From NCBI GenBank assembly GCA_964447945.1, contig CAYUUO010000001.1:35687-99686 (forward strand): 64,000 nt of DNA, written 5' to 3'. The position numbers were made by a program, and so were the translations under genes. Source of the stretch: an uncultured Oscillospiraceae bacterium (lineage in GTDB: Bacteria > Bacillota > Clostridia > UBA1381 > UBA9506). The notes beneath the pieces were generated by a model. The model saw only the letters and a list, made by a program, of their open reading frames with translations, was not told the DNA's origin and did not search any database. The number at the start of each line of letters is the position of its first letter. Position 1 is the stretch's first letter. Of this stretch, positions 15,112 through 41,829 are shown piece by piece.

Positions 15112-15152
15112 GGGCTTCATGTTATTTATATTAATATTAAGGAGTGTTTTTT

Positions 15153-21886: not shown

Positions 21887-21964
21887 AATATTATAGATGG
21901 TACGACTTATCGTCTGTCAGATGAAAAACAGACAACCAATTTTTCACAGAAAGGAAAGTGTATT

Positions 21965-23539: not shown

Positions 23540-23553
23540 ATAACCTGTAAGGC

Positions 23554-23593
23554 TGCCTGTCGGCGGGAGCCATTCCCGCCCGCCTGCAGGCAG
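23554..23593 (+). other. Compound GC-rich stem-loop between the binding-protein and permease genes
   Basis: The outer stem is 23554-23560 / 23587-23593 and the inner stem is 23562-23568 / 23574-23580. There is no U-tract. It may act as an mRNA-stability or attenuation element. Confidence 0.45.
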
Positions 23594-23639
23594 GCAATTG
23601 TCAGACTTTCGGAAATCAGGCGAAGAAAGGATTCTTTTT

Positions 23640-24587: not shown

Positions 24588-24600
24588 GGGAGGGAAACGA

Positions 24601-25473
24601 ATGAAAGACAACAGAACTTTTGGCGAGAAACTTTTTGACTGGGGCAACGTACTGCTCATGACAATCATTCTGATCCTGACCTTTTATCCCCTGTATCATG
24701 TGGTCATGGCCTCCTTCAGCGACCCGGATCTGGTGGTGGGACATTCCGGCCTGCTGCTCTATCCGCTGTCACCCAATATTAAGGCCTATAAGGCAGTGTT
24801 TACCTACCGGATGATTACCCGCAGCTTTCAGAACACCCTGTTTATTATTGTGGTGGCGCTGTCGCTCAACATGCTTCTGACCTGCTTCGGTGCCTATTTT
24901 TTGTCCAGAAAGGATATTATGCTCCGCGGGCCGCTGATGAAGCTGATTGTTGTGACGATGTACCTTTCCGGCGGTATGATTCCTTTTTATCTGACTGTTA
25001 CCGGGTTGGGACTGGACAACACGCTGTTTTCGGTGATTCTGCCCTTTGCAGTCAACACCTTTAACCTGATTATTATGCGGACCAATTTTGCGGAGATTCC
25101 CGACAGCCTGCTGGAGGCGGCGGAGTTGGAGGGAGCCAACGACTTTACCATTCTGTTTAAAATCGTCATTCCCGTTTCCAAGGCCACTATGGCCGTTGTG
25201 GCGCTCTACTATTTGGTGCAGCACTGGAATGCTTGGTTCTACGCTTCTATCTTCATCGACAAGCGCGAACTGATGCCCTTCCAGGTGATTCTGCGGGAAA
25301 TTCTGATTCAGAATTCCACCGACACCATGAAAAGCGCCGGGGATACGGAAAACATGTATGAGGTGATTAAATACGCGGTCATTGTCGTGGGAACCATTCC
25401 GATTTTAATTGTTTATCCCTTCCTTCAGAAATATTTTGTCAAGGGTGTTATGATTGGTTCGGTGAAGGGATAA
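24601..25473 (+). CDS. ABC sugar transporter permease (LplC/YtcP-like)
   Basis: The RBS ggggaggg precedes the ATG. The EAA loop is EAAELEGANDFTILFKIVIPVS. Confidence 0.85.
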   Translation: MKDNRTFGEKLFDWGNVLLMTIILILTFYPLYHVVMASFSDPDLVVGHSGLLLYPLSPNIKAYKAVFTYRMITRSFQNTLFIIVVALSLNMLLTCFGAYFLSRKDIMLRGPLMKLIVVTMYLSGGMIPFYLTVTGLGLDNTLFSVILPFAVNTFNLIIMRTNFAEIPDSLLEAAELEGANDFTILFKIVIPVSKATMAVVALYYLVQHWNAWFYASIFIDKRELMPFQVILREILIQNSTDTMKSAGDTENMYEVIKYAVIVVGTIPILIVYPFLQKYFVKGVMIGSVKG

Positions 25474-25575
25474 GACGCGTCAAAATGAGTATTACAGTGC
25501 TTTCCTGTGGCACGGCGCCGCAGACAAAATTCCCCGCGGCACAAGGGCTGCGGATAACGTTAAAAAAGGAGCGAT

Positions 25576-27879
25576 ATGATGATGAAAAAACTTTTTTCGG
25601 TTATGCTCAGCGTTTTTCTGGTAACGGCTATGGCGGTGGCGCCCATAACGGCCGGAGCGGCTTATGTTTCAGGCGATGCCATATTTGACATGTTTAAAAC
25701 GGATTTTGCTTCGTTTGTGCAATCGGCAACCGCCACCTATCAAAAAAGCGAGACCGCAACCGCAACGGGCAATCACGGCGGCTTAATCGGCGACGGGACT
25801 ACATGGGTTTTTGCGGAGGGGAACAATATTAACCCGGTGGAAAAAATAGATTCCTTTAACGGCCGCCAAAACGTCCTGCATTTAGGGCCGAATTTGTATG
25901 GTGGCTCATACCAGAAGGGCGATTTGAATTTTGTCAGAGAGGGGTTAAAATCTTCTCTGGCTGTCGGCAATATGGCACGCTGGGCAACGGGACTCTATAT
26001 TCCGTCGCCGGAGGGAGGCGCAGCCTTATCAAAGGGTATTCACAGCATTGGCCTTTTCCTGGCGGTTATGACCGTTGAAACGTTACAAGACAACTATCCG
26101 GCGGCAACCTGGAGCAGCATGTATGAAGGGCTGAACGCTTCGGATCTGATTCTTTGCGTCTATCATGGAAATGCAAGCACCGGTTTCTGCAAGCCTGTCT
26201 GCAAGTTTACGATGGACGAATGGCACGACATAGAGCTTTCCTTTGCCCTCACGGCCACTAATGCGATAACCCCCCTATCATTTCGGTATGACGGTGAGCT
26301 GATTTCTAACTTTATGACAGGCGCAAGCATCCAAACAAAGGTTGGCGGCGGCTATTGGACCGATACGAACTTTGGATATGCGGCCTATGGCACTTCAGGG
26401 AATGTTATTGCCATAGCTGCCGGTTCAACAACGCCGAATTATTACTTTTCCAATATGCTGTTTGAAAAAATTGTGGAACAGCCCCTTACGCTGGATTCCA
26501 TTACCTTAAACGGCACGGAGCCGGCCGACTATGACAGCACGGCCAATGCCCTGCCCTCTGCCAGCGGCGTCATTGCGGCTCATTTCTCCGAAGCGCCGAA
26601 CACCGTAGAGGTCACCATGACGGAAACAGTCGGCGACACAACCTACACGGGAAGAGTTGCGCCGGAGGGAACGCTTTCGGGAACGGATTACACGATTAAT
26701 CTTCAGGATGCGCCCCTGCATCCGGGCTCGGTTTACACCCTAACCTTCACAAGCGGCACGGCAACAGAATCGGTGACCTTTACGGCGGCCTATGACGGCT
26801 ATTACATTAATGAAAATTTTGAAAGCTACGCAAATGTCAACGTTGCCGGCACGACTGCAGTTGATAAATATCCCTATGTGAACGGTTCCGGCCATAACGG
26901 CATGACTAACCAAATTTTCAATGTGGCCGGTGACCGAAACTATCTGCAAATGAAGCTTTTAAACGGCAGCGCGTATTATGGAACGAGCCAGCAGCGCGCG
27001 GTTAGCATTCAGGGCACCTCGCTCCCGGCTGTTCCGGAGGGCTATGCCGATATCCGTTGCGCGGAGGTGACCTTTACCTTTGAGCCCATGAGCGCCAATA
27101 CCCGCGTTAACCTTTGGATGCAGGCGTTTTATGTGCAAAAGGCTTCAGCGGAAGACACAAACTACACGCTGTACGCGATGATGGGCGATGATGTAGGCCA
27201 TCCGATTTGTACACTTTCCGCAGGCACGGAATATACGGCCCGGTTCGTTTTTTCCGGCAGCGGCAGTGCCCGGTATGTACACAGCATCGAGCTCCGGCCT
27301 GCAGGCGGCGCGACAACGGCCTATAAGCAAACTCAGGACGGCATAAGCTTTTCCGTTTCCGGCGGCGCGGCTCAGACCGCCGGCGGCCGGATGACAACGG
27401 ATAACGGCTATTTGCTGGAGTTAGATAACACGGTGAGCCTGTCACCGCAGCTGATGGGTATTTATGCAACCTCCGTAGGCCCCACGGGTAAATATGTAAA
27501 CGCAAGCGCCTCCTGTCCGACAACAAGTGAACAGGCAACCAGCCTGACCGTTTACAGCATGAAATATTATCCCTACAGTGCCGGCACTGCCGGTACCTTT
27601 GCGGCCGCAGCACAGCCGGGCGCAGAGCCGGGCACGCTGGCGGTTACGGTTACCGCCCGGGACAGCCTGGGACAGGGTGAAACCGTTTTGGTTGCGGCCT
27701 ATAACGGTGACAGGCTTGTGGACGTGCAAAGCCTGACTTTATTAAAGCTGTATGATATTAATGAAACGGTTACCCTGCAGGCCGACAGCAGCTGCACCGT
27801 TACGGTGTTCCGCTGGAATGGGCTTTCCTCCCTGCAGCCTGTTGCGTCGGCGGTTCCTGTGATTATAACAGGGGCGTGA
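25576..27879 (+). CDS. Secreted protein with ConA/LamG-like and Ig-like modules; function unknown
   Basis: The RBS aaaggag precedes the ATG, and the signal peptide is MMMKKLFSVMLSVFLVTAMAVAPITAGAA. I recognise no anchor motif. Confidence 0.7.
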   Translation: MMMKKLFSVMLSVFLVTAMAVAPITAGAAYVSGDAIFDMFKTDFASFVQSATATYQKSETATATGNHGGLIGDGTTWVFAEGNNINPVEKIDSFNGRQNVLHLGPNLYGGSYQKGDLNFVREGLKSSLAVGNMARWATGLYIPSPEGGAALSKGIHSIGLFLAVMTVETLQDNYPAATWSSMYEGLNASDLILCVYHGNASTGFCKPVCKFTMDEWHDIELSFALTATNAITPLSFRYDGELISNFMTGASIQTKVGGGYWTDTNFGYAAYGTSGNVIAIAAGSTTPNYYFSNMLFEKIVEQPLTLDSITLNGTEPADYDSTANALPSASGVIAAHFSEAPNTVEVTMTETVGDTTYTGRVAPEGTLSGTDYTINLQDAPLHPGSVYTLTFTSGTATESVTFTAAYDGYYINENFESYANVNVAGTTAVDKYPYVNGSGHNGMTNQIFNVAGDRNYLQMKLLNGSAYYGTSQQRAVSIQGTSLPAVPEGYADIRCAEVTFTFEPMSANTRVNLWMQAFYVQKASAEDTNYTLYAMMGDDVGHPICTLSAGTEYTARFVFSGSGSARYVHSIELRPAGGATTAYKQTQDGISFSVSGGAAQTAGGRMTTDNGYLLELDNTVSLSPQLMGIYATSVGPTGKYVNASASCPTTSEQATSLTVYSMKYYPYSAGTAGTFAAAAQPGAEPGTLAVTVTARDSLGQGETVLVAAYNGDRLVDVQSLTLLKLYDINETVTLQADSSCTVTVFRWNGLSSLQPVASAVPVIITGA

Positions 27880-27887
27880 CGATCTAT

Positions 27888-27917
27888 CCGGAAGGCGCCG
27901 TTTGCGGCGCCTTCCGG
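27888..27917 (+). other. Perfect 12-bp GC-rich stem-loop between operon genes, without a U-tract
   Basis: ccggaaggcgcc (27888-27899) pairs with ggcgccttccgg (27906-27917), followed by aaaattt. Confidence 0.5.
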
Positions 27918-28011
27918 AAAATTTATAAAAGAGGACGCCGCCCGCTCCGGCGGCTTTGACGGCGCCTTGTTTCACACAAGTTTTGTCATGCCCCGGCAAA
28001 AGGAGAATGAT

Positions 28012-31000
28012 ATGAAAAAACTTTTAACAATTCTTTTATCTGTTTTTATGCTGTTGCAAATGGCGGTGTTCCCGGTCATAGCGGCAGACACGGCAAAAAG
28101 CTATGTCTATTATGATTTTGAGTCCGTACCGGCGTCGGAGCATGCCGTCGGTACGCGGACGCACACGGCGCAGAACGGCAAAACGGTGCAAATGACCAAT
28201 GTGGCGGCACGGCTTTACAGGGAATATGCCACGGTGAAAACAATTGACGGCGCACCGGCCTTTTCGCTGGAAAGCAGCGCTGCCATGAAGGTGCAAACCG
28301 TTTCATTTTTGCTGAATTCGGATCAGGAGGCGGATTATTCGCCGACAAACCGCATGGTCTCCCTGCGCTTTCGCTTTACAGCCCAGGCACCTGACCTTGT
28401 TAAGCAGATCTGGCAATCTTTGGCCATTACCTCCAAGGCAACGCTGGAGGGGTATGGCCACACGCTGCCGGCAGAGCTTGCGGCGGATGCGCAGATTTTA
28501 TATTTCTACAGAAATTTCAGCGGTCTGAATTATTCCGTGCCGATTTGCGTCATCACGGCGGATGACTGGCATGAGGTGACCTATTTGTACGATGAGGAGA
28601 ACTGGCAGGCCGTGGATTTATATCTGGACGGCGTTCGCGTTTCCGAACTGCTGGATGGCTCGGCTCTTGCGGGTACCGATCTGATTTACCGGAACAGCTA
28701 CAAATTTCTCCCGATTCAGTTTATTGACGATGCGGCCACCCGTGTTCCGATTATGTCTATCGGGAAGTCATCGGCAGCTACAGACTCTCTGCAGTTCAGC
28801 CGCATACGGTATGAGGGCTACACTGCGGAGCTTGACGGCCTGACAACGAACGTTGACAGCGGTGATAATGCCACGTCCTTCCCTGCAGACGGCACGCTGT
28901 CGGTGCAGTTTACCCACCCCATGAATGCGGACACGCTGGACAATGGCACAGTGCAGCTGCTGGATGCAGAAGGCATGCCGGTTTCCTATGCCGGCGGCGC
29001 CTACGATGCGGCATCCCGGTGCTACACCATTGATTTATCATCAGCTCCCTTGGCCGGGAACAGCGCCTACACCCTGTCCGTTACAACGGCGGTGAAAACA
29101 GTATTCGGTGACGCCCCCACCCAGAGCGCAGAACGCCGCTTTTTCACGGCAGACGGCATTTATGCACAGATTACGGATGTGCAGGCGGCTGCCGGGACCG
29201 TAACGGTTACGGTGGAAAACGTGAGTAATACGGCTCAGAATGTGACGATGTACGGCTCTGCGTATGCAGAGAGAAGCGGCGGACGACTGGCCTCTTTTCT
29301 GGGCAGCCAGGCCAAAACCATCGCCCCAGCCGGCATAGAGCGCTTTACATTTGCGGGCTTTGATCCGGCGCAGGGCTTTGCCAAGTTCTTTATCTGGGAC
29401 GGTATGCAGGTGTTAGGCCGCTGCGTGCGGTTTGACGGCGAGGCCTTCTCCGAGGCGGATGAAACCGCGGAAACCGAGAGAGCGCCGGAAACGGATGACG
29501 GCATCACCCTCGAAACGCCTGTGGTTAATGTTAACACCGGGTTGGTCACGGTGACGGGGTATTACCATGACTTGCCCAAGCGTTCCGTATCGGTGCTGCT
29601 AAAAAATATGGCAGAGGATCAGGTTTTATATACTGAGCAGTGCATGACGGACAAAAACGGTGCGTTTATCCTTACGATGGTCATGCCGCAGGGAACAACG
29701 GCGGGGGCCTATCCGATTTATTTGCAGGCCGGCGCTATGACAGAGCCTGTGAGAAAAACGCTGGAGCTTGACTTCACAGCGGCTGAGCCTGCCGTAACGG
29801 ATCTTTCTGTGAGCGGAACAGTCTTTGTCGGCGAGCCGGTTGCGGCGCAGTATGTCTATACTCATATGGCGGCGGTTGACGAGGGCGATTCCGAAATCAT
29901 TTGGTATGCCGCCGACACAGCCGACGCCCCCTTTACGGAGGTGATTCCCGGTGCAACCGGCAAAACGCTGAGTCTGCCGGAGGCCTATGCTTACCGGTAT
30001 ATTGGCTATCAGGTCACGCCAAAGACAATCGGCGGCGTAACAGGCGAGACAGTGACCTCCGGCGCCTTTCGGGTTTATGCCAGACCAACTGTCACCGGGG
30101 TGACCCTGCAGACGGAAAACGGCGCACTGGTGGTTAATTATTCCTACAGCCATATTAGGGGCTACGGAGAAAAGAATCATCGGTTCCAATGGTTTAAATC
30201 CGCTGCGGCAGACGGCGATTATACGGAAATCAGCGGTGTTGACTCGGCGCGGTATCAGCCGGCGGCGAGTGACAGCGGTTCCTATTTTAAAGTGATTATG
30301 ACGCCGGGAGCGGATGTTCCGGCGGATGAAGCCGCTGCGGCTTACGGTAACCCTACGGAAAGCACTGCCTGTCTTTGGAAGGGCGGGAGCAGCACAGGCG
30401 GCACAACCGGCAACAAGAACACCGGCGCCACCGGACGGGGCGGCGGAAGCAGTACACCGGTGAGCGGCAAGCCGTCCGATCCTGTTACGCCACCGTCTGA
30501 CGGGAACAAGACATTTTCCGACGTGCCGGCGGATCATTGGGCAAAGGCCGCTATCGACCGACTGCAGGCCATGGGCATTGTCAGCGGTGTTTCCGATAGA
30601 AGCTTCGAGCCGAACCGGCCGGTAACCCGCGCCGAGTTCATTAAAATGCTGCTGTTGGCCATGGGGCTTGCGCCTAAGGCTTATGACGGCTCATTTTCCG
30701 ACGTGACCGCCGACGCCTGGTATGCAGGTTTTGTACAAGCGGCCTACGAAAACGGCCTGGCAGACGGCAGCGACGGCGCCTTTATGCCGGATCAGCGAAT
30801 CAGCCGGGAGGCCATGGCTAAAATGCTGGTAACGGCTTATGAAAATCTCAGGGGCACGGTGGCGGCAGAGACCGCCGGCTTTACAGATCGTGAGGCCTTT
30901 TCCGACTGGGCAGCGCCCTACATTCACAAGGCTGTGGCCGCGGGACTGATGCAGGGCATGGATGACGGCAGCTTTAACGGCCGGGGCGCGGCTGACCGGG

Positions 31001-31065
31001 CTCAGGTTGCGGCTGTGATTGCCAGATTTTACGATGGCGCTGTGAAAGGAGGAAACAGCCAATAA
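28012..31065 (+). CDS. Surface protein anchored by three C-terminal SLH repeats, with ConA/LamG-like and Ig-like modules
   Basis: The RBS aaaggaga precedes the ATG at 28012, and there is a signal peptide. The three SLH repeats are FSDVPADHWAKAAIDRLQAMGIVSG..., FSDVTADAWYAGFVQAAYENGLADG... and FTDREAFSDWAAPYIHKAVAAGLMQG.... Confidence 0.8.
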   Translation: MKKLLTILLSVFMLLQMAVFPVIAADTAKSYVYYDFESVPASEHAVGTRTHTAQNGKTVQMTNVAARLYREYATVKTIDGAPAFSLESSAAMKVQTVSFLLNSDQEADYSPTNRMVSLRFRFTAQAPDLVKQIWQSLAITSKATLEGYGHTLPAELAADAQILYFYRNFSGLNYSVPICVITADDWHEVTYLYDEENWQAVDLYLDGVRVSELLDGSALAGTDLIYRNSYKFLPIQFIDDAATRVPIMSIGKSSAATDSLQFSRIRYEGYTAELDGLTTNVDSGDNATSFPADGTLSVQFTHPMNADTLDNGTVQLLDAEGMPVSYAGGAYDAASRCYTIDLSSAPLAGNSAYTLSVTTAVKTVFGDAPTQSAERRFFTADGIYAQITDVQAAAGTVTVTVENVSNTAQNVTMYGSAYAERSGGRLASFLGSQAKTIAPAGIERFTFAGFDPAQGFAKFFIWDGMQVLGRCVRFDGEAFSEADETAETERAPETDDGITLETPVVNVNTGLVTVTGYYHDLPKRSVSVLLKNMAEDQVLYTEQCMTDKNGAFILTMVMPQGTTAGAYPIYLQAGAMTEPVRKTLELDFTAAEPAVTDLSVSGTVFVGEPVAAQYVYTHMAAVDEGDSEIIWYAADTADAPFTEVIPGATGKTLSLPEAYAYRYIGYQVTPKTIGGVTGETVTSGAFRVYARPTVTGVTLQTENGALVVNYSYSHIRGYGEKNHRFQWFKSAAADGDYTEISGVDSARYQPAASDSGSYFKVIMTPGADVPADEAAAAYGNPTESTACLWKGGSSTGGTTGNKNTGATGRGGGSSTPVSGKPSDPVTPPSDGNKTFSDVPADHWAKAAIDRLQAMGIVSGVSDRSFEPNRPVTRAEFIKMLLLAMGLAPKAYDGSFSDVTADAWYAGFVQAAYENGLADGSDGAFMPDQRISREAMAKMLVTAYENLRGTVAAETAGFTDREAFSDWAAPYIHKAVAAGLMQGMDDGSFNGRGAADRAQVAAVIARFYDGAVKGGNSQ

Positions 31066-33770
31066 TGAAAACAAATATCGGAACAAGAAAAAGAATTTTT
31101 ACATGGCTCCTTACCGCTATTCTCGTGCTGGTCACAGTAGCCTTTCCGGGGGTGCTGGCCGCCGGGGAGGCGGACAGCGCCCCAACAGAACAGCTGATGC
31201 TGTTAGAGGCGCTGGGCATTGCGTCCGCGGATAGCTATAGCCCGGCGGCCGGCCTGACTAAAGGCGAAATGGCAGGCTATCTGTACCGTCTGGCCGGAGC
31301 GCCGGAACCGCCGGCAGACGCGGAAACCGTTGTGTTTTCCGATGTGCCGGCAGGCAGCGACAACGCCGGTGCCATCAGCTATTTAAAAATTATGGGCGTT
31401 TTAAGCGGCGATGACACCGGCGCCTATCATCCGGAGCAGCCGGTTACCGGCGTGCAGGCCGTTAAGGCTACAGCTGCCCTTTTAGGCTACGGGCCGCTGG
31501 CGGAAAACTATGGCGGTTACCCCGGCGGCTGGCTGCGGGCGGCTAATCAGAACAAGCTGCTCCGCGGGCTGACGGCAACCGATCAGGTGATTACGCAAGC
31601 GGACTTTTTCCGCCTGATGTATAACGCATTATTTGCAAAAAGCCTGACGGCAACGGTGATTTCTGCAAAGACAGAATATGAATACAGCGATGATATGTTT
31701 ATGTATGAGGCTCATGATGTTTATGAATACACCGGTCGGGTAGAGGCAACGGAATATACCGGTCTTTACAGTGTGGCATCCAAGGCGCCGGCCGGCCGGG
31801 TTGTTATTGGCGGTACGAACTTTACGGCAGGGCAGGATATGTTCCATTATATCGGCATGACGGTTACCTGCTATGCCCGGGAAAATCAGGCGGGCGGCCC
31901 GGACAGCATTTTGTATGTTCTGCAAAACGCGGATTACGAGCCGCTGGTGGTGCAGGCGGCCGATATTCTGTCCGATACCGATAAGAGCACACTGCACTAC
32001 TACGACACGGAGCGGGATAAAACAGACACCATGGCCATATCCCGCGGCGCCGCTGTCTTTTATAACAATGTATTTTATTGTGAAATCAACCGGCTCTCCC
32101 TGTCGGAAATCCTGCTGCGGGACGAAAACGGGCTGCCGCTGGATGCGCAGCTCACCTTAGCGGATGCCGACAATGACGGCACGGCGGATATTGTCAAAAT
32201 CCTGCAATATGAAATTGTCACGGTGGACAACGTCAATGCCGATGAGGGGCTGGTCAGTGATAAATATACCGGCAGCGTTTATCGGCTGGATACAGAAAAC
32301 AGCAGCAAAATCTGCCGTTTGTACCGGGACGGCGAGCTGATCCCGGTGTCGGATTTAAAAACCTGGGACACAGTTTCGCTGGCGCGCAGCAAGGATGAAA
32401 CCGTTATCTTCGGCTATGCTTCGGTGGCGCTTGCCAAGGGCGTCATTGAAAGCGTTTCGGAGGCGGACTGTCAGGTGACGATTGACGGCCGGGTCTATGA
32501 CTATAGCCACTATTTCAAGAAGCTGCTGGACAACGGTAAGCTGCAAAAGCCGGCGGCCGGCCAAACGGTTAGCCTTCTGCTGGATATTTTCGGCAATGTT
32601 GCCTGCTATCAGCAGGGTAGCACCGCCCAAAACCAGTATGGCTATCTGGTGGCGGCGAAGGATGGGCAGGGCTTGTCCACGGAACTGCAGTTCAGGCTTT
32701 TTACCACAGCGGATACCTTTGAAGTGTTTGACGTTGCCAGCCGGATTAAAATCAACAATGTTACTTACAAGGAGACTGACTGGAAACAGTGCAGCGCCAT
32801 TTATCACACGGCGCTGATTCCCCAGATGGTTCGCTATACGCTGAACGAAAAGGGTGAGCTGCACAAAATGGAAACGGCAGACGACACCTATGTGAACACC
32901 AATAAGGGCTCTAATTCCCAGCGTTTTTCTCTGGACTTTGATGTGTCGCGGATGACCACGGGCCGCACCTATCGCTGGAAGTCAACCGGAAGCGTCAGCG
33001 GTGAATACCTGCTGCCCGGTTCTGCAATTTTGTTCGGGATTCCCGACAATGTCGCCAATGAGGATGATTTTTATTGTTCCACGCCGGCGCAGCGGCTCAG
33101 CAATGATGCCACGGTGCCCGGACTTAAGCTGTATGACTGCACAGAGTATAAAACCGCCGCGGTAGCTGTTCTGCCCGCATCCAGCGGCAGTGAAAATTTC
33201 AATGGTATGCCGGCGGTGATTACAAAAGTCGTGCAGGCGGCTAACGATGCAGGCGATACCGTTCGGCGGGCTTACATTTTGCAGGAGGGGAAGGAATCTG
33301 CGCTGGATGCGGCTGATGCGGAGCTGCTCCGTGGCTTTGGCACGGGAGATGCCTTTAAATTTAACACAAACAGCCGCGGTGAAATTAAATCGATTGCAAG
33401 CAGCGACACAGCCCGATTCCATTACGAGGGCGCGGCCAGCCGCCTGTTCGGCAGTGACTTTTCAGATAACTACGGCGCGGGTTCAGCGAATTTTATGGCA
33501 TTTGTCATTCCCTACCGTGTTTCCAATGATACGCTGGAGGTTACCATTAACCCCGCGCTGACGGCAACGGGCGCCGCGGAAACCCGGGTGTATCAAGGCA
33601 GCAAGGCGCTGGAGAGCGGCATTTATGTGCTGAATACAAACACCGGTGCGGTCCGTAAGGGTACAAGAGCCGATATTAAGCCGATGGCCAGCTATGGCGC
33701 GGAGAATGCGTCCCGCATGCTGATCACGGGTACCTATTACGGTTTGAGCATGATCGTATTGTATGAATAA
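31065..33770 (+). CDS. Surface protein with N-terminal SLH-like repeats; paralog of the truncated gene at 3..2354
   Basis: The start overlaps the upstream stop (TAATG), which suggests translational coupling. It has a signal peptide, an SLH-like repeat (VFSDVPAGSDNAGAISYLKIMGVLSGDDTGAYHP) and the paralogy blocks noted for feature 3..2354. Confidence 0.75.
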   Translation: MKTNIGTRKRIFTWLLTAILVLVTVAFPGVLAAGEADSAPTEQLMLLEALGIASADSYSPAAGLTKGEMAGYLYRLAGAPEPPADAETVVFSDVPAGSDNAGAISYLKIMGVLSGDDTGAYHPEQPVTGVQAVKATAALLGYGPLAENYGGYPGGWLRAANQNKLLRGLTATDQVITQADFFRLMYNALFAKSLTATVISAKTEYEYSDDMFMYEAHDVYEYTGRVEATEYTGLYSVASKAPAGRVVIGGTNFTAGQDMFHYIGMTVTCYARENQAGGPDSILYVLQNADYEPLVVQAADILSDTDKSTLHYYDTERDKTDTMAISRGAAVFYNNVFYCEINRLSLSEILLRDENGLPLDAQLTLADADNDGTADIVKILQYEIVTVDNVNADEGLVSDKYTGSVYRLDTENSSKICRLYRDGELIPVSDLKTWDTVSLARSKDETVIFGYASVALAKGVIESVSEADCQVTIDGRVYDYSHYFKKLLDNGKLQKPAAGQTVSLLLDIFGNVACYQQGSTAQNQYGYLVAAKDGQGLSTELQFRLFTTADTFEVFDVASRIKINNVTYKETDWKQCSAIYHTALIPQMVRYTLNEKGELHKMETADDTYVNTNKGSNSQRFSLDFDVSRMTTGRTYRWKSTGSVSGEYLLPGSAILFGIPDNVANEDDFYCSTPAQRLSNDATVPGLKLYDCTEYKTAAVAVLPASSGSENFNGMPAVITKVVQAANDAGDTVRRAYILQEGKESALDAADAELLRGFGTGDAFKFNTNSRGEIKSIASSDTARFHYEGAASRLFGSDFSDNYGAGSANFMAFVIPYRVSNDTLEVTINPALTATGAAETRVYQGSKALESGIYVLNTNTGAVRKGTRADIKPMASYGAENASRMLITGTYYGLSMIVLYE

Positions 33771-33782
33771 GGTGGGAACGCT

Positions 33783-36700
33783 ATGAAAAAGCTAGCTATG
33801 AATCAAATACTGTCTGTTTTGCTTGCCTTGCTCCTGTCCCTCGTCCCGGTTGCCCCGGCAACAGCGACGGATACCTATAGCGACATTGCGGGGCATTGGG
33901 CCGAGGCAGATATTCTTTCCCTGTCGGCACGGGGGATTATTGAGGGTGTGGGGGATGGTCTGTTTCTGCCGGCGGGGACGGTGACCCGGGCAGAGTTTCT
34001 GGCTCTGGTCGTCCGTGCCTTTCAGCTGAAGGAAAATTCGGAAACGCCGGACTTTTCCGATGTAACACAGGCCGACTGGTTTTACAGCACGGTGGCTGCC
34101 GGGGGCAGTCTGATTCCGGAAGCCATGACGCCGGGAGGAAGGCTTTTGCCCGATCAGCCCATAACTCGTGAGGAAATGGCGGTAATTTTGTCCGGCGCTG
34201 CCGGCGGGACGGATAGTGCAGACCTGACCTATACAGACAGGGCAGATATTTCAGACTGGGCGCTGGCCGCTGTGCAAAATGTCACAGCCCAAAGCCTTAT
34301 GAAGGGCAGCGAAGGGCAGTTCATGCCCCGGGGTCTGTCCACCAGAGCGCAGGCAGCGGCGGTTTTAAACCGCGCCGTGCCGGCGCCGGCAGCAGAACCG
34401 GACGTGAAGGCAATTTTGGCGGGACATGATTTTTCTAATCTGCCGGTTTCCACCCCGGAGGGCCGTGCGGCCTATCCGGCGGCAGATATTGATGTGGATA
34501 TCCGCAGCGTGGAAACGGAATTTGGCACGTTGCCCGCAACAGAGGAGGAGTTTGCCCGGCGCTTTCCCATCAGTCAGCAGATGCGGCCGATAGCAGATAT
34601 GAAATATATCAGCGGCGTGGGCATGCTGGCCTATTTTGAAGAAGGCGGCCCGCGGGAGGTCTATATCCGGCGGGAAGCTGCGGCGCAGCATAACCCGGCA
34701 ACCACCCGGTTTAAGCAATTCTGTACCGCCCGGGTCATCGATCCGGACGGCGAGGTGGTTTGCTATTACGATTTTTCCGAAAAGGATCTTTTGGATGACG
34801 CCGTTGTTTTCCGGGTGCCGGAGGGCAAGGCAGGCATTTACCAAATTTCCTATAAAAACGGGCAGAACAATGTGGACGATATCACCATCGGTCTGCCGGA
34901 AAGCCGTGCCTGGGCTATCCGCGGCGAGCCGTCCCTGTGCTTCACGGAAAAAACAGCGAAGGAATGGTATTTGTATGTTCCCAGAACCTCCAAGCACGTG
35001 GTGGTGTTTACCCGGGGCAGCCAGAAGGCGCAAATCGACCTTTATGATGAAGCTGGTACGCCTTTTTCCAAGGATACGCAGGCGCCTTTAAAGAACTTTG
35101 ACATTACGGTGAACAAAACCGATGTTGTTTGGAAGCTGGTGTTTTCCGGTACAGAGAATGCGGCTGTTACCTTTGAACGGGGCGTGCCACAGATTTTGTG
35201 CCCCACGGAGGAAATGGCCCGGTTTTTAAAGGGCAACACCCGGGAGGCGGAGGGGCTTTTGGTATCCGGTGATTTACAGGCGCAGGTCCGGGAAATTGCC
35301 TATAGCATGAAGGATCATAATTTTGATGTGGATTTAACCTTTTTAGAGGATATTCCCGAGGACGTTACGGAATACGACATTGAAAATCTTATGTTCGGCG
35401 TCTACAGCGGTTTAGGCTGCCTCAGTGAAGAAACGCTGAAAAACCAATGCCTGGATCCGACGCATCCCTATTACGGCGGTACGAACACCGACGGCATAAA
35501 AATCACAGAATATGACACCTGGGAGGATTTTGAGCCGCCTCGCCGCTGGTCGTTAACCACGGCGGCCTCCTTAGCGGCTATGAGCAGCATTCCCACCAAG
35601 CTGAATGCGGCCTATGGCAACAGGGCGCTGATCGATCGGGCGGTACTGAATGCCTTTTGCCATTTCGCCTCAATGGACAATCAGTTCCTGATTCGGGAAA
35701 GTAACGGATCCCCCAACCAGTTTTGGCCCAGTGAGCATTCCTTCTTTATTTATCCTTCGCTGGCTACCTGCTATAATTTGCTGAAGGATAAAATTGACCC
35801 GGAAACACAAAAGGTATTCCGCCGGGCACTGATTTTGGTAGGGGACAACCTGGCGAACAACATAAACTCTCAGACGAATCAGTGGAGCGAGTCGATTATG
35901 GGGCATTTGGAAACCTACCTTGCCACCGGCGAGAAACGGTTTTTAGAGTATTATGAGCGGCATGTCGCCGCCATAACGAGTGATAATGTAGACCGGGCGA
36001 CAGGCTCCTACGGTCAGCATCCCGCCGGCTATTTCATGGAGAATCACGGGCCGGAGGGAAGCTATCAGGAGCTTTCCATGCATAAGGTGGTGGGCAGCTT
36101 TCTGTATTATAAAAATCTGCCGGAGGCAAAGCCCGAGCTTGTGGAAAAGCTTACGGACGCTATTGACCGGGCGGTGACCTTTGAAAGCCTGTTCTGGCTG
36201 CCCCAGCCAAACGGTGCGCTGGTGTCGCCAAACGCCTTAAACACCCGTAGCACTATGATGCTGAGCAATCAGGGATATCCCGGCTTTACCATGGCGGCGA
36301 CGGTTAACCCGCTGGCAGCCAAAGTGCTGGAGCTCTTGCCGGTCACACCGGAAAACGTCGGATCGGTTGCCACCATGCCCCAGGGCGGTTTGAATAAGCC
36401 GGATGTATCGAAATCCAACATTTTGCAGGGACTGGCCGGCAAAAACAACAGGTGGCCCTCAAGAGTCGGCTTTAACGGGTTTTTTATTCCCATGGTGTAC
36501 AACGCCTACCGCCAGCCGGAACGCGTGGCGGCCGCCGGCACCGCGCCGGTTCATGAAACCGATAAAATATGGGATCTGCAGGGATTGATGGCCTTTAAGC
36601 GGGGCAAGCTCTACGGCATGACCTACTATGACAGCTACTGCACAAGTCCCTATGCAGCCTATCCGGCGGCCAGAAGTCCGCTACCCTTTGTGCTGTGGAC

Positions 36701-37223
36701 GGAAAAGCTGGGCGCTGTGGTGCTGGCCATGAACAACAAAAATATTGCTGAGTCGGAGCGGCCCCAGATGGGCTATTCCGGCGTGATGCTGCAGCGTGCG
36801 GACGGCAGCTGGGTTAAAACGCAAAAGGAAAACAGTACCTTTCGATGGATTAAGGAAGGCTATGAATATGTGGCCGAGTGCGCGCTCCCAGAGGTAAACG
36901 GCAGCATGAAGGTGCGCGGAAAAATCACAGCTGCCGGGTTGTCTTTGTCGGTCACGGTGTCTGCCGCGGATCCGCTGCAGAGTGCCTGGCTCAGTCTGCC
37001 GATTAATATGATGCTGGAGGACGCGGTGGTTACTGGGCCGGAAAACGGCAGTTTTACCTTTGCGGCAAACGGTGAAACCCTCCATATTGACTACCCGGAG
37101 ACAGCCAACGCCTATTTTGACGATTTTGTGATTGATTCGGGGACAACACCAAAGATCAGGGCGCTGAAAATTGAACTCCCCCTGTATAATCGGCCCCTTA
37201 ATCTAAACTTCCATGTGGAGTAA
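33783..37223 (+). CDS. SLH-anchored (three N-terminal repeats) large protein of an unrecognised family; candidate glycan-active enzyme
   Basis: The RBS aaggtggg precedes the ATG, and there is a signal peptide. The SLH repeats are YSDIAGHWAEADILSLSARGIIEG, FSDVTQADWFYSTVAAGG and YTDRADISDWALAAVQNVTAQSLMKG. The remaining ~900 aa match no motif I can name, but they are clearly paralogous to 37235..40459. Confidence 0.7.
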   Translation: MKKLAMNQILSVLLALLLSLVPVAPATATDTYSDIAGHWAEADILSLSARGIIEGVGDGLFLPAGTVTRAEFLALVVRAFQLKENSETPDFSDVTQADWFYSTVAAGGSLIPEAMTPGGRLLPDQPITREEMAVILSGAAGGTDSADLTYTDRADISDWALAAVQNVTAQSLMKGSEGQFMPRGLSTRAQAAAVLNRAVPAPAAEPDVKAILAGHDFSNLPVSTPEGRAAYPAADIDVDIRSVETEFGTLPATEEEFARRFPISQQMRPIADMKYISGVGMLAYFEEGGPREVYIRREAAAQHNPATTRFKQFCTARVIDPDGEVVCYYDFSEKDLLDDAVVFRVPEGKAGIYQISYKNGQNNVDDITIGLPESRAWAIRGEPSLCFTEKTAKEWYLYVPRTSKHVVVFTRGSQKAQIDLYDEAGTPFSKDTQAPLKNFDITVNKTDVVWKLVFSGTENAAVTFERGVPQILCPTEEMARFLKGNTREAEGLLVSGDLQAQVREIAYSMKDHNFDVDLTFLEDIPEDVTEYDIENLMFGVYSGLGCLSEETLKNQCLDPTHPYYGGTNTDGIKITEYDTWEDFEPPRRWSLTTAASLAAMSSIPTKLNAAYGNRALIDRAVLNAFCHFASMDNQFLIRESNGSPNQFWPSEHSFFIYPSLATCYNLLKDKIDPETQKVFRRALILVGDNLANNINSQTNQWSESIMGHLETYLATGEKRFLEYYERHVAAITSDNVDRATGSYGQHPAGYFMENHGPEGSYQELSMHKVVGSFLYYKNLPEAKPELVEKLTDAIDRAVTFESLFWLPQPNGALVSPNALNTRSTMMLSNQGYPGFTMAATVNPLAAKVLELLPVTPENVGSVATMPQGGLNKPDVSKSNILQGLAGKNNRWPSRVGFNGFFIPMVYNAYRQPERVAAAGTAPVHETDKIWDLQGLMAFKRGKLYGMTYYDSYCTSPYAAYPAARSPLPFVLWTEKLGAVVLAMNNKNIAESERPQMGYSGVMLQRADGSWVKTQKENSTFRWIKEGYEYVAECALPEVNGSMKVRGKITAAGLSLSVTVSAADPLQSAWLSLPINMMLEDAVVTGPENGSFTFAANGETLHIDYPETANAYFDDFVIDSGTTPKIRALKIELPLYNRPLNLNFHVE

Positions 37224-37234
37224 AGGAGAAGGCA

Positions 37235-40200
37235 ATGAAAAAATATCTTTCCCTGTTCTTTCTTGCACTATGGCTTTGCGTACAAGTACCGGTGAGCGCC
37301 CAGAGCGGGGCGCTCACTGCAAAAGGCGGCTTTACCAGCCGCCTTTTATCCCGTTCGGGCTGTACTTTTCAAGCCGATATCAGCAATCCTGCCGGCGGCG
37401 AAGCAACGCTGCTGCTGATTTTTGCCAGCTACGCGGGCAGCCGTTTGCAGCAGGCGGAGGTGCGCACAATAACGGTGAACGGAACGGCAACGGCGGTTTC
37501 GGAAACGGGTGTGCCGGCTGACGCGGATACTACGCGGCTTAGTGCCTTTTTGCTGGATGATCTCACCGCGGTATCGCCCTTGTGCCGGGATGATGGCGTT
37601 TTTACGGACTATGAGCCGATTACAAATGACTACGGCAAAAGCAATTTGGTCACCGAAACAGCTGCGGCAACAGAAGCCGACCGGGCGGCCTTTACTTTGT
37701 TGCCGACACTGTCCTCCGGTGCCGATCAGGCAGTTGTCAACGGTCTGGGTGTTTTGGGCCTATTTCCCGAGGGCGGCCCCGGCCGGATTTACTGTAAGAT
37801 GGAAAAGCGTCTTGGCGCCACGGCAGTGCGCTATGAGCAATTCCGCACCCTTCGCGTGATTGCGCCGGACGGCGAGATTGTTTGCTATTATGATTTTTCA
37901 GAGTCGGCCGACAGCTTAGAAGAGCTGATTTTCACAGTGCCGTCAGGCCCGGCCGGTATCTGGACGGTGTCCTACACCGGCGGACAGAGCACCGGGGATC
38001 TGCTCACGGTGGGTCTGCCGCCGACTTGTGAGGCCTGGGGTGTCCGTGGCGAAATGAAGCTGGTATTCCCCACGGGACGGGCGGCCTCCACCTGGTATAC
38101 CTATGTGCCCCCAACCTCAACGTCCTGCGAAATTGAGACCGGCGGCTACAGCGGTGGCATTCAGCTGTATTTGCCTGCGCAGGATGCGGGGCAGGTGAGC
38201 CACGTACCAACAGCCGCCGAGGAGGAAGCGGCTGCGGCGGCAGGAGAGCCTCTGACTGAGGTGGCGCTGAAGGCCCAGCTTGTATGGGGCGAGGCAGCGG
38301 CAGATGGCCGATGCCGTTTGGATAAGCAGGATTCAACACAATATGGGCGATACTTTGATTATCGCCTTTCCGGATATACGCCGGACAGCGTTTGGAGAAT
38401 TGAAGTATCCGGCGGTGCATCGGTGGGCATGAGCAGCCTGTTGTTTGCAACGGGCATCCCTGGCCTTTTATGTCCAAGCGAGGCATCGGCACGGCTCCTT
38501 GCCGGCGGTACGGCCAGAAGCCGGGACGGCCGGCTGTTGGGCGGCGCTTATCAGGCGCAGGTGCGGGACGCCATGCTGCAGCACAAGGATGACGATTTAT
38601 CCGTACAGTTGTCGTTTCCCACATCCATTCCGGCAGAAATCAGTCCGGAGGACTACGACACAGAGGCGCTGCTTTATGGCCGGTACGGTGGATTGACGAC
38701 GCTGCTGCCCGGCCTTGAGAAGCAAAAGCTGGATTCTGAAAGCCTGTATTACGGCGCTTTTCCCGACGCCAACGATTTAAGCAATGAACAGGAAATTGAG
38801 AATTTTTGCTACGGAGGCCGATATGCCATGCATGCCACGGCGGCTTTGGCCGCGGTGGCCGGGGTGCCTGCAAAGCTGAACCCGGGCTATCATAACGAGG
38901 CGCTGGTCACCCGCAGTATGTTGGCATCCTTCTGTCATCTGGCGGCATTGGCGCCGGATTATCTGCTGCGGGAGAAAATGACGCCCCGGGGGAATTTCTA
39001 CCCCATGACCCATGTATTTTTTGTCTATCCCTCGCTGGCTGAGGCCTACGGCTTGCTCAAGGATCAGATCAGCCCGTCAGAGTCTGTTTTGTGGCGGCGC
39101 GGCCTGCTTCTGCTGGGGGATAAGCTGGCTAACTATATATCATCAGAGACCAACCAGTGGAGTGAAATCATTTACGGACATCTGCTGGTTTACCGGGCAA
39201 CCGGCGAGGAGCGGTTTCTCCGATATTTCGAGCGGGCGGCAGAGGCCATCACCCATGATAACCTGCATTGCAATGGCTCCATGGGTCAGCACAGCGCCGG
39301 ATATTATCTGGAGGAGCGGGCGCCCAGTGGCTCTTATCAGGAGCTGTCACTGCACAATATTGCGGCGGCCTATTTGATATATCGGGCAATGCCGGAGGCA
39401 AACAGCTCTCTTACAGCCGCTCTTTATGACTCCATCCGGCGAGCAGCTGTTTACGAAAGCCTGTATTGGATTCCGAACGCGGCGGGGCAGCCGGTTTCGC
39501 CCACCTCCATGAATCTGCGGGCGCCTACAGGGATGATGTCCAACTGTGGCTATCCCGGTATGTTTCTGGTGGCATTGGCAGTTCCGGAGGCCAATGGACT
39601 TTTATCCCTGTTGCCCTACAGTGCAGAAAATTACGGCTATGCCACCACAATGTCCCATGTCGCCCTGCATAATCCGGCAGTAGCGGAGCAGGTGATTCTC
39701 TGGGGTCTCGGTCAGCAGGGTACGGTTCCCTACGGTCTCAGCGGACAATGGACGCCACGTCTCTATGAGGGTTATGCCCTGACAGAGGGGATTACAGAAA
39801 CCGTAACGCCGCCGGTTCGCACCCATGCCGGTGTGTGGGATTTAGACGGTATGCTGGCGATTAAGAAGGACGGCTGGTATCTCCTGACCCATTATGCTGC
39901 GCCGGCAACCGGGGGCTCTCTGCGCAGCGGCCTCCCTGCTGCCGTTTGGCGGGAAAGCTTTGGTGCGGCTGTTTTGTCCATGCATATTTCAACGGACGCG
40001 CCGGATTACGGTCAGGCGGCATATAGCTGCTTTACGGCGGAAAAGGCAGACGGTACTGTCTGTCGCACAGCGCTGGAAAACGGTACTCTGACAGCCCGGA
40101 CGGACAGCGGCTATCAGATTACCCAGCCGCTGGAGGGGATTGGTACGGTGTGCTATACGGTAGAGATTGTTGACGAAACCCGGATGACAGTGACTGTTAC

Positions 40201-40459
40201 GGCAGATATAACAGCGGAGGATGTAACCGGCGCCTACGTGCGTCTGCCGGTCTATGAAAGCGGCGCCACCGTTTCCGGCAGTGCCGGTGTTCTGCATTAC
40301 GCCGCCGGTTCCGGCAGCCTGGAGATTCAGGCAGAGGGCGCGGCCATGGGCGATACTTTATATATGGCCAGCAGCGGCGGTCATGCCGTCAGACCCTTGG
40401 ACGTCCCGGTGACAGACGGTGTTCCCACGGTCATATCCTTTGTAGTGCCGGGGGCGTAA
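37235..40459 (+). CDS. Secreted paralog of 33783..37223 lacking SLH repeats; unrecognised family
   Basis: The RBS aaaggaga precedes the ATG, and the signal peptide is MKKYLSLFFLALWLCVQVPVSAQS. Shared blocks include VCYYDFSE, TNQWSE.I.GHL..Y.ATGE.RFL.Y.ER, GSYQELS.H and FF.YPSLA..Y.LLKD.I.P. Confidence 0.7.
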   Translation: MKKYLSLFFLALWLCVQVPVSAQSGALTAKGGFTSRLLSRSGCTFQADISNPAGGEATLLLIFASYAGSRLQQAEVRTITVNGTATAVSETGVPADADTTRLSAFLLDDLTAVSPLCRDDGVFTDYEPITNDYGKSNLVTETAAATEADRAAFTLLPTLSSGADQAVVNGLGVLGLFPEGGPGRIYCKMEKRLGATAVRYEQFRTLRVIAPDGEIVCYYDFSESADSLEELIFTVPSGPAGIWTVSYTGGQSTGDLLTVGLPPTCEAWGVRGEMKLVFPTGRAASTWYTYVPPTSTSCEIETGGYSGGIQLYLPAQDAGQVSHVPTAAEEEAAAAAGEPLTEVALKAQLVWGEAAADGRCRLDKQDSTQYGRYFDYRLSGYTPDSVWRIEVSGGASVGMSSLLFATGIPGLLCPSEASARLLAGGTARSRDGRLLGGAYQAQVRDAMLQHKDDDLSVQLSFPTSIPAEISPEDYDTEALLYGRYGGLTTLLPGLEKQKLDSESLYYGAFPDANDLSNEQEIENFCYGGRYAMHATAALAAVAGVPAKLNPGYHNEALVTRSMLASFCHLAALAPDYLLREKMTPRGNFYPMTHVFFVYPSLAEAYGLLKDQISPSESVLWRRGLLLLGDKLANYISSETNQWSEIIYGHLLVYRATGEERFLRYFERAAEAITHDNLHCNGSMGQHSAGYYLEERAPSGSYQELSLHNIAAAYLIYRAMPEANSSLTAALYDSIRRAAVYESLYWIPNAAGQPVSPTSMNLRAPTGMMSNCGYPGMFLVALAVPEANGLLSLLPYSAENYGYATTMSHVALHNPAVAEQVILWGLGQQGTVPYGLSGQWTPRLYEGYALTEGITETVTPPVRTHAGVWDLDGMLAIKKDGWYLLTHYAAPATGGSLRSGLPAAVWRESFGAAVLSMHISTDAPDYGQAAYSCFTAEKADGTVCRTALENGTLTARTDSGYQITQPLEGIGTVCYTVEIVDETRMTVTVTADITAEDVTGAYVRLPVYESGATVSGSAGVLHYAAGSGSLEIQAEGAAMGDTLYMASSGGHAVRPLDVPVTDGVPTVISFVVPGA

Positions 40460-40522: not shown

Positions 40523-40526
40523 GGAC

Positions 40527-40555
40527 TTGCCAAATCGATGAAAATGTGGTACAGT
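40527..40555 (+). promoter_or_regulatory. Sigma-70-type promoter for the GH88 gene (TTGCCA-17-TGgTACAGT)
   Basis: The -35 hexamer is at 40527-40532, the spacer is 17 nt, and the -10 hexamer is at 40550-40555. It lies about 55 nt upstream of the ATG at 40612. Confidence 0.5.
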
Positions 40556-40611
40556 ATAGGAGTTATCAGTATTCTTATGATTTAATGAAACTGTTTGAGG
40601 AGGACATTACC

Positions 40612-41829
40612 ATGACCTATGAGGAAGCATACAAGCTGTGCGGTGAAAAGGCACGGCTGCATATGAAAAGCATGAACGGGATTCCGTTTGAACTGGGGGA
40701 ATGCCGCGACGGCGATTATTACAAGCATGTTAAGGACAAAGAAAAGTCGGCTCTTTCGGGACGCTGGAGCTGGGTGACCTCCTTTGTAACCGGCATGGCG
40801 CCTCTTTTGTTCCAGACGGACGGGGACAGCCGTGCACTCCGCTGGGCCAACCAGTTTGCTGATGATTATCATGACAAGGTGTTCCGGCCCTACACCCAGA
40901 CTATGCATGATCTTGGCTTTTTATATCTGCCCTACAGCGTACATATGTATCAGCTGACCGGTGACAGGGGTCACCGCGACACGGCACTCCAGGCGGCCAA
41001 TGAGCTGGCTAAGCGCTTTGATTTAAACGGGCGGTATATTGAGGCTTGGTCTGAAATGAATACCTTTGAAAAGGACGGGCGCATGATTATTGATTCCTGC
41101 ATGAATCTGCCGCTGCTGTTCTGGGCCTGGAAGGAAACAGGCCATACCTTTTATCATGATGTGGCGGCGGCTCATCTGGAAACGGCCATGCGCGTTCTGG
41201 TGCGCGAGGATGCTTCCGTTTGTCACGCCTGGCGTCTTGATCCGGCCACCGGCAAGCCAACGGAGGAAGTCAACTCCTGCGGTTTTGCCAACGGCTCCCA
41301 CTGGGCGCGGGGCACGGGCTGGATGGTTTTTGGACTGGCAATCGCTTATGAATATACGAAAAATGAAACCTATCTGGATACGGCTGTTAAAGTTGCAGAA
41401 AAATATCTGGATTCTCTGGAGGACAGCCCGGTTCCTGTTTGGGATTTCCGCCTGCCCGCCGACCAGCCGGCCAAAATCTGCGGCAATGTGCCGGGGCTGG
41501 GCGCCGATTGGGATGAAAGTTTGCTCGAAAATAAAAAATATAATGTGGATACCTCCGCGGCTGCCATTATGGCCTGCGGTCTGCAGACAATTGAGCGGTA
41601 TCGGCCGTGCGACCGCTTCCATCAGCATGTAGAGGCGGCGCTGTCTGTCCTCAGCAATGAATATCTGAATACCGATCCGACGGTACCCGGTATGCTCAAA
41701 CGCTGCAACGGCCGCAACGCCTTTAGCGTTTACGGCGATTATTATTACATGCTGGCGCTGGCTATGCGCTTATATGACGTCAGAACCTGCTGGGGTTGTT
41801 CCGAGGACGCCCCGGCAGTCAACCAATAA
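40612..41829 (+). CDS. GH88 unsaturated glucuronyl hydrolase
   Basis: The RBS gaggagg sits 8 nt upstream of the ATG at 40612. The family motifs are MHDLGFLYLPYS, IIDSCMNLPLLFWAWKETG and GSHWARGTGWMVFGLAIAY. I see no signal peptide. Confidence 0.85.
   Translation: MTYEEAYKLCGEKARLHMKSMNGIPFELGECRDGDYYKHVKDKEKSALSGRWSWVTSFVTGMAPLLFQTDGDSRALRWANQFADDYHDKVFRPYTQTMHDLGFLYLPYSVHMYQLTGDRGHRDTALQAANELAKRFDLNGRYIEAWSEMNTFEKDGRMIIDSCMNLPLLFWAWKETGHTFYHDVAAAHLETAMRVLVREDASVCHAWRLDPATGKPTEEVNSCGFANGSHWARGTGWMVFGLAIAYEYTKNETYLDTAVKVAEKYLDSLEDSPVPVWDFRLPADQPAKICGNVPGLGADWDESLLENKKYNVDTSAAAIMACGLQTIERYRPCDRFHQHVEAALSVLSNEYLNTDPTVPGMLKRCNGRNAFSVYGDYYYMLALAMRLYDVRTCWGCSEDAPAVNQ

Follow-up and report, generated by a model that had tools for sequence, protein, structure and literature searches.

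Two adjacent genes were found to encode paralogous secreted proteins, here called A and B, on the forward strand of a 64,000-nucleotide stretch of DNA (hereafter the window) from an uncultured Oscillospiraceae bacterium (contig CAYUUO010000001.1 of assembly GCA_964447945.1). They belong to a real, rare and unannotated protein family with a lyase-type fold, in which one of the two copies is anchored by surface layer homology (SLH) repeats and which, in the Firmicutes, is linked to glycoside hydrolase (GH) family 88. We consider it probable, at about 0.6, that A and B are beta-eliminating polysaccharide lyases (PLs) for a glucuronate-containing glycan, with Y761 (numbering of A) as the putative acid/base and N699 as the putative neutraliser.

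The initial annotation of the window had described the two genes as tandem paralogs of about 1100 residues from an unrecognised family, the first with three N-terminal SLH repeats and the second with a signal peptide only. The open reading frames (ORFs) were exactly as described, and BLASTP aligned the products with 35% identity and 50% positives over 985 residues (E 6e-162), a match so far past chance that their paralogy is certain. All eight peptides quoted as conserved blocks were found (positions 313, 654, 697 and 759 of A; 203, 595, 638 and 699 of B). Pfam confirmed the three SLH repeats of A, which resemble the SLH domains of Sap and SlpA in PDB sequence searches, and found none in B, where a signal peptide alone could be read from the sequence.

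The family was also as unrecognised as had been claimed. Apart from SLH, no part of either protein matched a Pfam-A or NCBIfam model at E≤1, and there was no significant match of A or B to Lyase_8 (PF02278), Hepar_II_III_C (PF07940), DUF4962 (PF16332) or Alginate_lyase (PF05426). Searches of PDB sequences with phmmer (E≤10) returned SLH matches only, with none for the core of A or for B, and a profile of 38 family sequences likewise had no match among all PDB sequences at E≤10. No Pfam domain fell on the core of these 38 members or of nine distant ones, and the nine offered no bridge to a named family, the Pfam domain detected being one dockerin in one member. A literature search, including PL27, PL42 and PL43-47, found no described family with these features.

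Word-indexed searches retrieved four relatives for B and 37 for the A core. When 1.84 billion cluster representatives were searched exhaustively with HMMER, 355 clusters passed E≤1e-3 and 173 passed E≤1e-30, so that the family, though real, is rare. Because Pfam, NCBIfam and PDB sequence searches do not detect it, all of the relatives seen with a source name are labelled ‘hypothetical protein’. A search with a 13-sequence alignment against one genome per GTDB species recovered 30 loci, originating from Clostridia metagenome-assembled genomes (MAGs) of ruminant and other guts, Paenibacillus, Cohnella, Verrucomicrobia (Terrimicrobium, Chthoniobacteraceae), Planctomycetes (Phycisphaerae) and Lentisphaerae (Victivallis vadensis), with two weak partial matches from Sumerlaeota. 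A 99%-identical fragment (P0007) was present in a ‘Clostridia bacterium’ MAG. Accessory modules on the members comprised SLH (6 of 38), carbohydrate-binding module (CBM) family 11, a ChiA_N Ig-like domain and Big_5, in addition to the dockerin of the distant member, and are of kinds typical of carbohydrate-active enzymes; the majority of members have no anchor of any kind.

Structural models were generated with AlphaFold2 (AF2). The core of A (residues 251-1146; 38-sequence alignment) was modelled with a mean predicted local distance difference test (pLDDT) score of 90.9 and a predicted template modelling (pTM) score of 0.92, and full-length B with scores of 85.8 and 0.88. The A model proceeds from an N-terminal all-beta region through paired helices to a C-terminal beta-sandwich. 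Foldseek retrieved 74 PDB matches for it at E≤1e-3, of which the best 50 were all polysaccharide lyases combining a toroid with an antiparallel beta-sandwich, except for dermatan-sulfate epimerase 1 (DS-epi1); the top 21 matches of B belonged to the same lyase fold class, again with DS-epi1. Matches to PL33, PL8, PL15, PL35, PL12 and PL17 had a probability of 1.00 and E-values of 1e-10 to 1e-11. For A, the individual matches included PL33 (8r6z; E 1.3e-10, template modelling (TM) score 0.56 on the target), PL8 xanthan lyase (1x1h; E 2.8e-10) and chondroitin AC lyase (1rw9; E 6.7e-10), PL35 (9o3q, E 3.0e-10; 8khv, E 7.7e-10) and PL15 (3a0o, E 7.0e-10; 6lja, E 5.0e-9), as well as PL12 (5jmd), PL17 (8bdd) and PL39 (6jpn), all at sequence identities of 7-12%. 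The best match of B was PL35 (8khv; E 2.5e-11, TM 0.58), then 1rw9, 9o3q, PL33, DS-epi1, PL12 and PL17, behind which came matches to alpha-2-macroglobulin and complement proteins and to GH9 and GH63, all far less significant and of low TM. In a library of viral structures, the only meaningful matches were baculovirus ODV-E66, a PL23 chondroitin lyase, and related proteins of poxviruses and hytrosaviruses. On these models, A and B carry the (alpha/alpha)n toroid plus antiparallel beta-sandwich fold of polysaccharide lyases, and the layout initially proposed by analogy with heparinase II/III, PL8 and PL15 is thereby supported.

The comparison could be refined family by family. PL8 (chondroitin AC, hyaluronate and xanthan lyases; 1RWA, 1X1H) shares the toroid and C-terminal antiparallel beta-sandwich with A and B (Foldseek E 3e-10 to 1e-8), as does PL23 (ODV-E66, 3VSM), yet A and B have no detectable sequence similarity to either and possess a large additional N-terminal beta region, read as two domains. 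The best Foldseek scores overall were to the heparinase II/III-like families PL33, PL35, PL15, PL12, PL17, PL21 and PL39 (8R6Z, 8KHV, 3A0O, 4MMH); A and B, however, lack the Pfam domains Hepar_II_III_C and DUF4962, both of which are matched by a PL35-like protein encoded elsewhere in the window (2369-6721).

Conservation was assessed on full-length members, 108 of them close and 29 distant, aligned to the family hidden Markov model (HMM). Polar residues conserved in both sets included Q499, Q555, D558, N608, R619 and D688 of A (Q440, Q497, D500, N549, R560 and D629 of B), and in the toroid N608, R619, N699, Q700, E753, Y761 and R822 are kept from Clostridia to Planctomycetes. In the beta domain, Y944 (Y882 of B) is present in 105 of the 108 close members and is comparable in position to Y470 of PL33 and Y450 of PL17 (PMC11848413). 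The catalytic set of this fold class comprises a Tyr, a neutralising Asn or His that precedes it by 53-63 residues, and a further His (PMC12088678, Table 4; PMC11848413), the latter located in PL8 and PL23 8-9 residues ahead of the Tyr (PMC12088678, Table 4) and in the beta domain in PL12, PL15, PL17, PL21, PL33, PL35 and PL39 (PMC12088678; PMC11848413). In the AF2 model, N699 and Y761 are both found at helix N-termini in the toroid, 62 residues apart, which is reminiscent of the heparinase II/III-like lyases with their Asn at a helix start and Tyr about 55-62 residues later. The arrangement N699...E753-(8)-Y761 has exactly the spacing of PL23 (N236/H291/Y299) and nearly that of PL8 (N183/H233/Y242; PMC12088678, Table 4), that is, Asn-(~54)-X-(8)-Tyr with an Arg some 60 residues further on, except that X is a Glu conserved throughout the family rather than the catalytic His. 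The catalytic residues first proposed were only partly sustained: the Asn (N699) and Tyr (Y761) are conserved, but of the His residues, H708 is present in about 65% of close members, H746 in about 63% and H767 in about 14%. Another His, H703, one helical turn past N699, occurs in 58 of the 108 (54%) and is Glu in both A and B. Since a conserved His, a defining catalytic feature of the fold class, was not found, the family was not assigned to any existing PL family.

Genomic context provided a further line of evidence. A and B lie in a same-strand gene set (21815 to 43952) that continues past B with a GH88 homolog, whose PDB match 1vd5 is the unsaturated glucuronyl hydrolase of Bacillus GL1, and a 718-residue protein without annotation, and a strong terminator-like hairpin follows at 44207-44231. 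GH88 was encoded within 10 kb of the family gene in 8 of 10 independent Firmicute loci, and as the very next gene in five of them, namely the window, a contig of a related species (L005), Cohnella (L001), Paenibacillus (L008) and Paenibacillaceae (L009). The GH88 gene directly downstream and its repeated linkage in other Firmicutes support a catabolic, lyase-type reading. Neighbouring GH31 and GH29 genes in Verrucomicrobia and Cohnella, and GH95 and GH78 at other loci, together with GH88, are taken as evidence that the family serves the breakdown of a complex acidic heteropolysaccharide, which may contain fucose.

Taken as lyases, A and B would depolymerise an extracellular glucuronate-containing heteropolysaccharide, A at the cell surface, where its SLH repeats would hold it, and B without an SLH anchor; B may be a released protein, as first suggested, in that no recognisable anchor was found in it. 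N699, with Q700, R822 and possibly a protonated E753, would neutralise the substrate carboxylate, and Y761 would abstract the C5 proton and protonate the leaving O4, in the manner of the catalytic Tyr of PL8, PL33 and PL12; Y944 of the beta domain may assist. Cleavage would yield oligosaccharides with a terminal 4,5-unsaturated uronate, which would enter the cell through the ABC transporter of the upstream genes and be trimmed by the unsaturated glucuronyl hydrolase whose gene follows B.

Several observations weigh against this reading. No His column reached 70% conservation in the family alignment, in contrast to the His used by every characterised family of this fold class in PMC12088678 (Table 4), and the conserved Glu at the PL8/PL23 His position could mean a different chemistry. 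The catalytic His of the beta-domain motif HxH(x)D (H444 of PL33, H401 of PL35, H531 of PL15) also appears to be missing, as a manual comparison of motifs with a PL15/PL35 alignment (SHSHGD, SHAHMD) tentatively places F/Y-Y-D of the family over the HxH(x)D of PL15, PL33 and PL35. The putative equivalence of N699 and Y761 to the catalytic Asn and Tyr is deduced from spacing and conservation. When the family was compared by hhalign with a profile of 33 PL35-like sequences, derived from the PL35-like protein of the window, weak local matches were obtained. The best of these (probability 25%, E 7.7e-4) set one toroid helix on the equivalent PL35 helix, which speaks for the lyase reading; an alternative register puts Y761 six residues before the PL35 Tyr, and such weak matches are too little for a residue-level register. 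Finally, GH88 was found within 10 kb in none of the 22 loci from Planctomycetes-Verrucomicrobia-Chlamydiae (PVC) phyla.

These points leave some room for a lyase scaffold put to other use. The most plausible form of this, which we nevertheless regard as unlikely, is a glycoside hydrolase acting on a neutral or acidic glycan without beta-elimination, with E753 and, in most members, D758 as catalytic carboxylates. It would account for the conserved Glu in place of His, for an Asp at position 758 in 85% of close members, for the want of a conserved His, and for the PVC loci, which lack GH88 and lie amid hydrolases of GH31, GH29, GH95 and GH78. However, position 758 is Glu in A and Ser in B, which is hard to square with an essential carboxylate; a Glu already serves as neutraliser in heparinase II (PL21; PMC12088678, Table 4); and the Firmicute GH88 linkage makes sense only if unsaturated uronates are produced. 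Structural matches to (alpha/alpha)6 glycoside hydrolases (GH63, GH9, GH65 and GH95) were rejected; they were confined to short alignments at E≥4e-3 and, at E ~8e-3 and TM≤0.31, were far weaker than those to lyases (1e-10 to 1e-11).

It is more doubtful still that A and B are non-catalytic, that is, surface glycan-binding or S-layer-associated proteins which have retained a lyase-like fold. A does bear SLH repeats, as do neighbouring SLH proteins, and B, though not A, gave weak Foldseek matches to alpha-2-macroglobulin and complement-like proteins (E 5e-5 to 1e-3). The latter were rejected as relatives, with TM scores of 0.06-0.18 against 0.4-0.58 for lyases, root-mean-square deviations above 30 Å and no Pfam alpha-2-macroglobulin domains. 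That unanchored members form the majority also speaks against this reading, and the retention of a polar set (Asn, Gln, Glu, Tyr, Arg), both in members from four phyla and in paralogs that score only 130-310 bits against the family profile, is typical of an active site. Very improbable, in our estimation, is that the proteins are uronate C5-epimerases which modify a polysaccharide without cleaving it. Human DS-epi1 (6hzn), matched by both models (E 2.4e-8 for A, 1.3e-8 for B), has the lyase fold and a catalytic Tyr (PMC11848413), but it ranked under many lyases, the genes belong to a catabolic locus with an AraC-type regulator, an ABC importer and GH88, and the products of an epimerase would need no GH88. 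Beta-eliminating lyases are the interpretation we favour.

On the strength of the models, A and B are a good candidate for a new PL family. A more elaborate version of this proposal, which we put forward tentatively and hold to be possible rather than expected, is a new CAZy lyase family that performs beta-elimination without the otherwise universal His, by means of Tyr761 with Asn699, Glu753 and Arg822, that habitually occurs as diverged tandem pairs (anchored and unanchored in Clostridia, with comparable pairs in Planctomycetes and Lentisphaerae), and that targets a fucose- and glucuronate-containing heteropolysaccharide. New polysaccharide lyase families still emerge a few at a time, each opening a glycan to analysis and biotechnology, and the present one occurs in ruminant-gut Clostridia, Paenibacillaceae and glycan specialists of the PVC group. 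Confirmation of activity would allow some 350 protein clusters to be annotated, shed light on what the surrounding, mostly unannotated locus does, and offer a natural test of whether toroid lyases can dispense with their catalytic His; together with the absence of a dbCAN match, confirmed activity would make this a new CAZy family. Firmicute loci that pair an SLH-anchored lyase with GH88 are known, an example being the xanthan system of Bacillus sp. GL1 and Paenibacillus, with its PL8 xanthan lyase and unsaturated glucuronyl hydrolase. The window locus resembles these in having extracellular lyase candidates, an ABC importer, an AraC-type regulator and GH88, but differs in that its lyase candidate is of an unrecognised family, is present as a tandem pair, and is accompanied by other large proteins that are mostly unannotated.

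The initial annotation had further regarded A and B as cell-bound and released isoforms, a view that did not hold. In a phylogenetic tree, A and B fell into sister clades within a 10-member Clostridia group, and the related species (L005) also has the pair and retains the SLH/no-SLH pairing; the duplication is therefore older than the split from that species. B, moreover, has a domain and an insert of its own, the former unaligned to the A catalytic core in BLASTP and standing opposite the linker between the SLH repeats and core of A. Tandem pairing is also not peculiar to the Clostridia, since distant-paralog pairs were found in two other phyla. At four Planctomycete loci (L011, L013, L020 and L032), a distant paralog (127-147 bits to the family HMM) lies directly downstream of the family gene, and at three Lentisphaerae loci (L004, L022 and L029), a more distant one (47-72 bits) lies directly upstream and overlaps it. 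As these distant paralogs retain N699, E753, Y761 and R822, both partners of a pair are probably active. The recurrence of the pairing suggests a division of labour, which we consider likely; A and B probably differ in linkage preference or in endo/exo mode, and it is unlikely that they are two forms of one activity.

Table. Positions in the window of genes A and B, their domains and candidate active-site residues, and the flanking genes
Feature	Position	Strand	Basis or conservation
Gene A, SLH-anchored member of the unnamed family, 1146 aa	33783..37223	+	ORF and translation
A, putative signal peptide, aa 1-28, MKKLAMNQILSVLLALLLSLVPVAPATA followed by TD, cleavage probably after ATA	33783..33866	+	Read from sequence, without predictor
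A, three SLH repeats, aa ~30-197, cell-wall anchor	33870..34373	+	Pfam PF00395, E 2.2e-22, three stretches
A, N-terminal all-beta region, read as two beta-sandwich domains, aa ~263-466	34569..35180	+	DSSP strands, AF2 core 13-216
A, predicted helical (alpha/alpha)n toroid region with conserved polar residues, aa ~476-910	35208..36512	+	AF2 helices, core 226-659; Foldseek; conservation
N699-Q700 (N640-Q641 of B), candidate carboxylate-neutralising Asn at helix start	35877..35882	+	N in 108/108 close, 27/29 distant (135/137); codons checked
E753 (E693 of B), Glu 8 residues before Y761	36039..36065 (E753...Y761)	+	108/108 close, 27/29 distant (135/137)
Y761 (Y701 of B), candidate acid/base	within 36039..36065	+	107/108 close, 29/29 distant (136/137)
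R822 (R762 of B), Arg 61 residues past Y761	36246..36248	+	102/108 close, 26/29 distant
A, C-terminal antiparallel beta-sandwich, includes Y944, aa ~928-1146	36564..37220	+	AF2 strands, core 678-895
Gene B, paralog without SLH, 1074 aa	37235..40459	+	ORF and translation
B, putative signal peptide, aa 1-22, MKKYLSLFFLALWLCVQVPVSA followed by QS (cleavage between VSA and QS)	37235..37300	+	Read from sequence; AF2 helix 2-17
B-specific extra N-terminal beta-sandwich, aa ~28-123	37316..37603	+	AF2 strands, pLDDT 70-90
B-specific Ala/Glu-rich insert, predicted disordered, aa ~319-371	38189..38347	+	pLDDT <50 at 319-328 and 330-371; gap in A (BLASTP)
B, codons N640-Q641...E693...Y701, conserved set as in A; S698 for the family's usual Asp	39152..39337	+	
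ABC sugar-binding protein, two permeases, 767-aa unknown, 1032-aa SLH/Big_5 protein, 901-aa unknown	21815..33770	+	Pfam
GH88 unsaturated glucuronyl hydrolase homolog, directly 3' of B	40546..41829	+	Pfam PF07470; PDB 1vd5 UGL (unsaturated glucuronyl hydrolase), E 2.8e-41

Both proteins begin with what reads as a typical Sec-type signal peptide. A ribosome-binding site (RBS), AGGTGG, lies 8 nt 5' of the ATG of A, and the gap between the two genes is 11 nt, with the Shine-Dalgarno sequence of B (AGGAGA) overlapping the stop codon of A; on account of this arrangement, A and B are probably co-transcribed. The GH88 gene probably starts at the ATG at 40613 rather than the GTG at 40546, given the strong RBS GAGGAGG before 40613 and a promoter-like site overlapping 40527-40555. 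This site (TTGCCA-17-TACAGT with a TG extension) lies just 3' of an A-rich direct repeat of about 21 bp, present in three copies (ggcaataataaaacaaaaaa) in the interval between B and GH88 (40461-40525), which could be a regulatory or UP-like element.

The genes upstream of A are the probable remainder of a utilisation locus, and the AraC-type regulator is divergently encoded at 19378-21603. The contig of the related species (L005) has the same order, with a 758-residue unknown, an SLH protein, an 895-residue unknown, A-like and B-like genes and GH88. By hhalign, neither the seven unannotated large neighbours, nor the SLH/Big_5 protein, nor a GDSL-like protein showed any relationship to the family or PL35 profiles. 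At seven Verrucomicrobial loci (L002, L003/L015, L014, L019, L023, L026 and L031), a Gfo/Idh/MocA oxidoreductase is encoded directly 3' of the family gene, usually with overlapping stop and start codons, and may provide an alternative route for product handling; GH88 is absent from the neighbourhood of these loci, most of which also encode a small CBM11-only protein upstream of the family gene.

A second pair of paralogs was detected amongst the large unannotated proteins of the window (18-2354 and 31065-33770; 24% identity over 638 residues, E 4e-37), one copy lying directly 5' of the PL35-like gene and the other directly 5' of gene A. Homologs of this pair occur near the family gene in three Clostridia loci (L005, L017 and L027), and the proteins may be a conserved lyase partner. 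Neither had a Pfam match besides weak SLH in 31065-33770, for which a PDB search gave weak SLH-type matches only. The PL35-like gene (2369-6721) itself encodes a lyase of 1450 residues (8khv, E 1.4e-42) with DUF4962, Hepar_II_III_C and a C-terminal CBM32/F5_F8_type_C domain, and is followed by genes for two large unannotated proteins (6774-9203 and 9407-12499). Together with a second, canonical GH88 gene at 17831-18931, this region has the appearance of a second locus for an acidic glycan. The interval between the two loci encodes, at 15144-17495, a PGA_cap protein (CapA-like, poly-gamma-glutamate capsule synthesis) and an M14 zinc carboxypeptidase, which may constitute a poly-gamma-glutamate processing module unrelated to the lyases.

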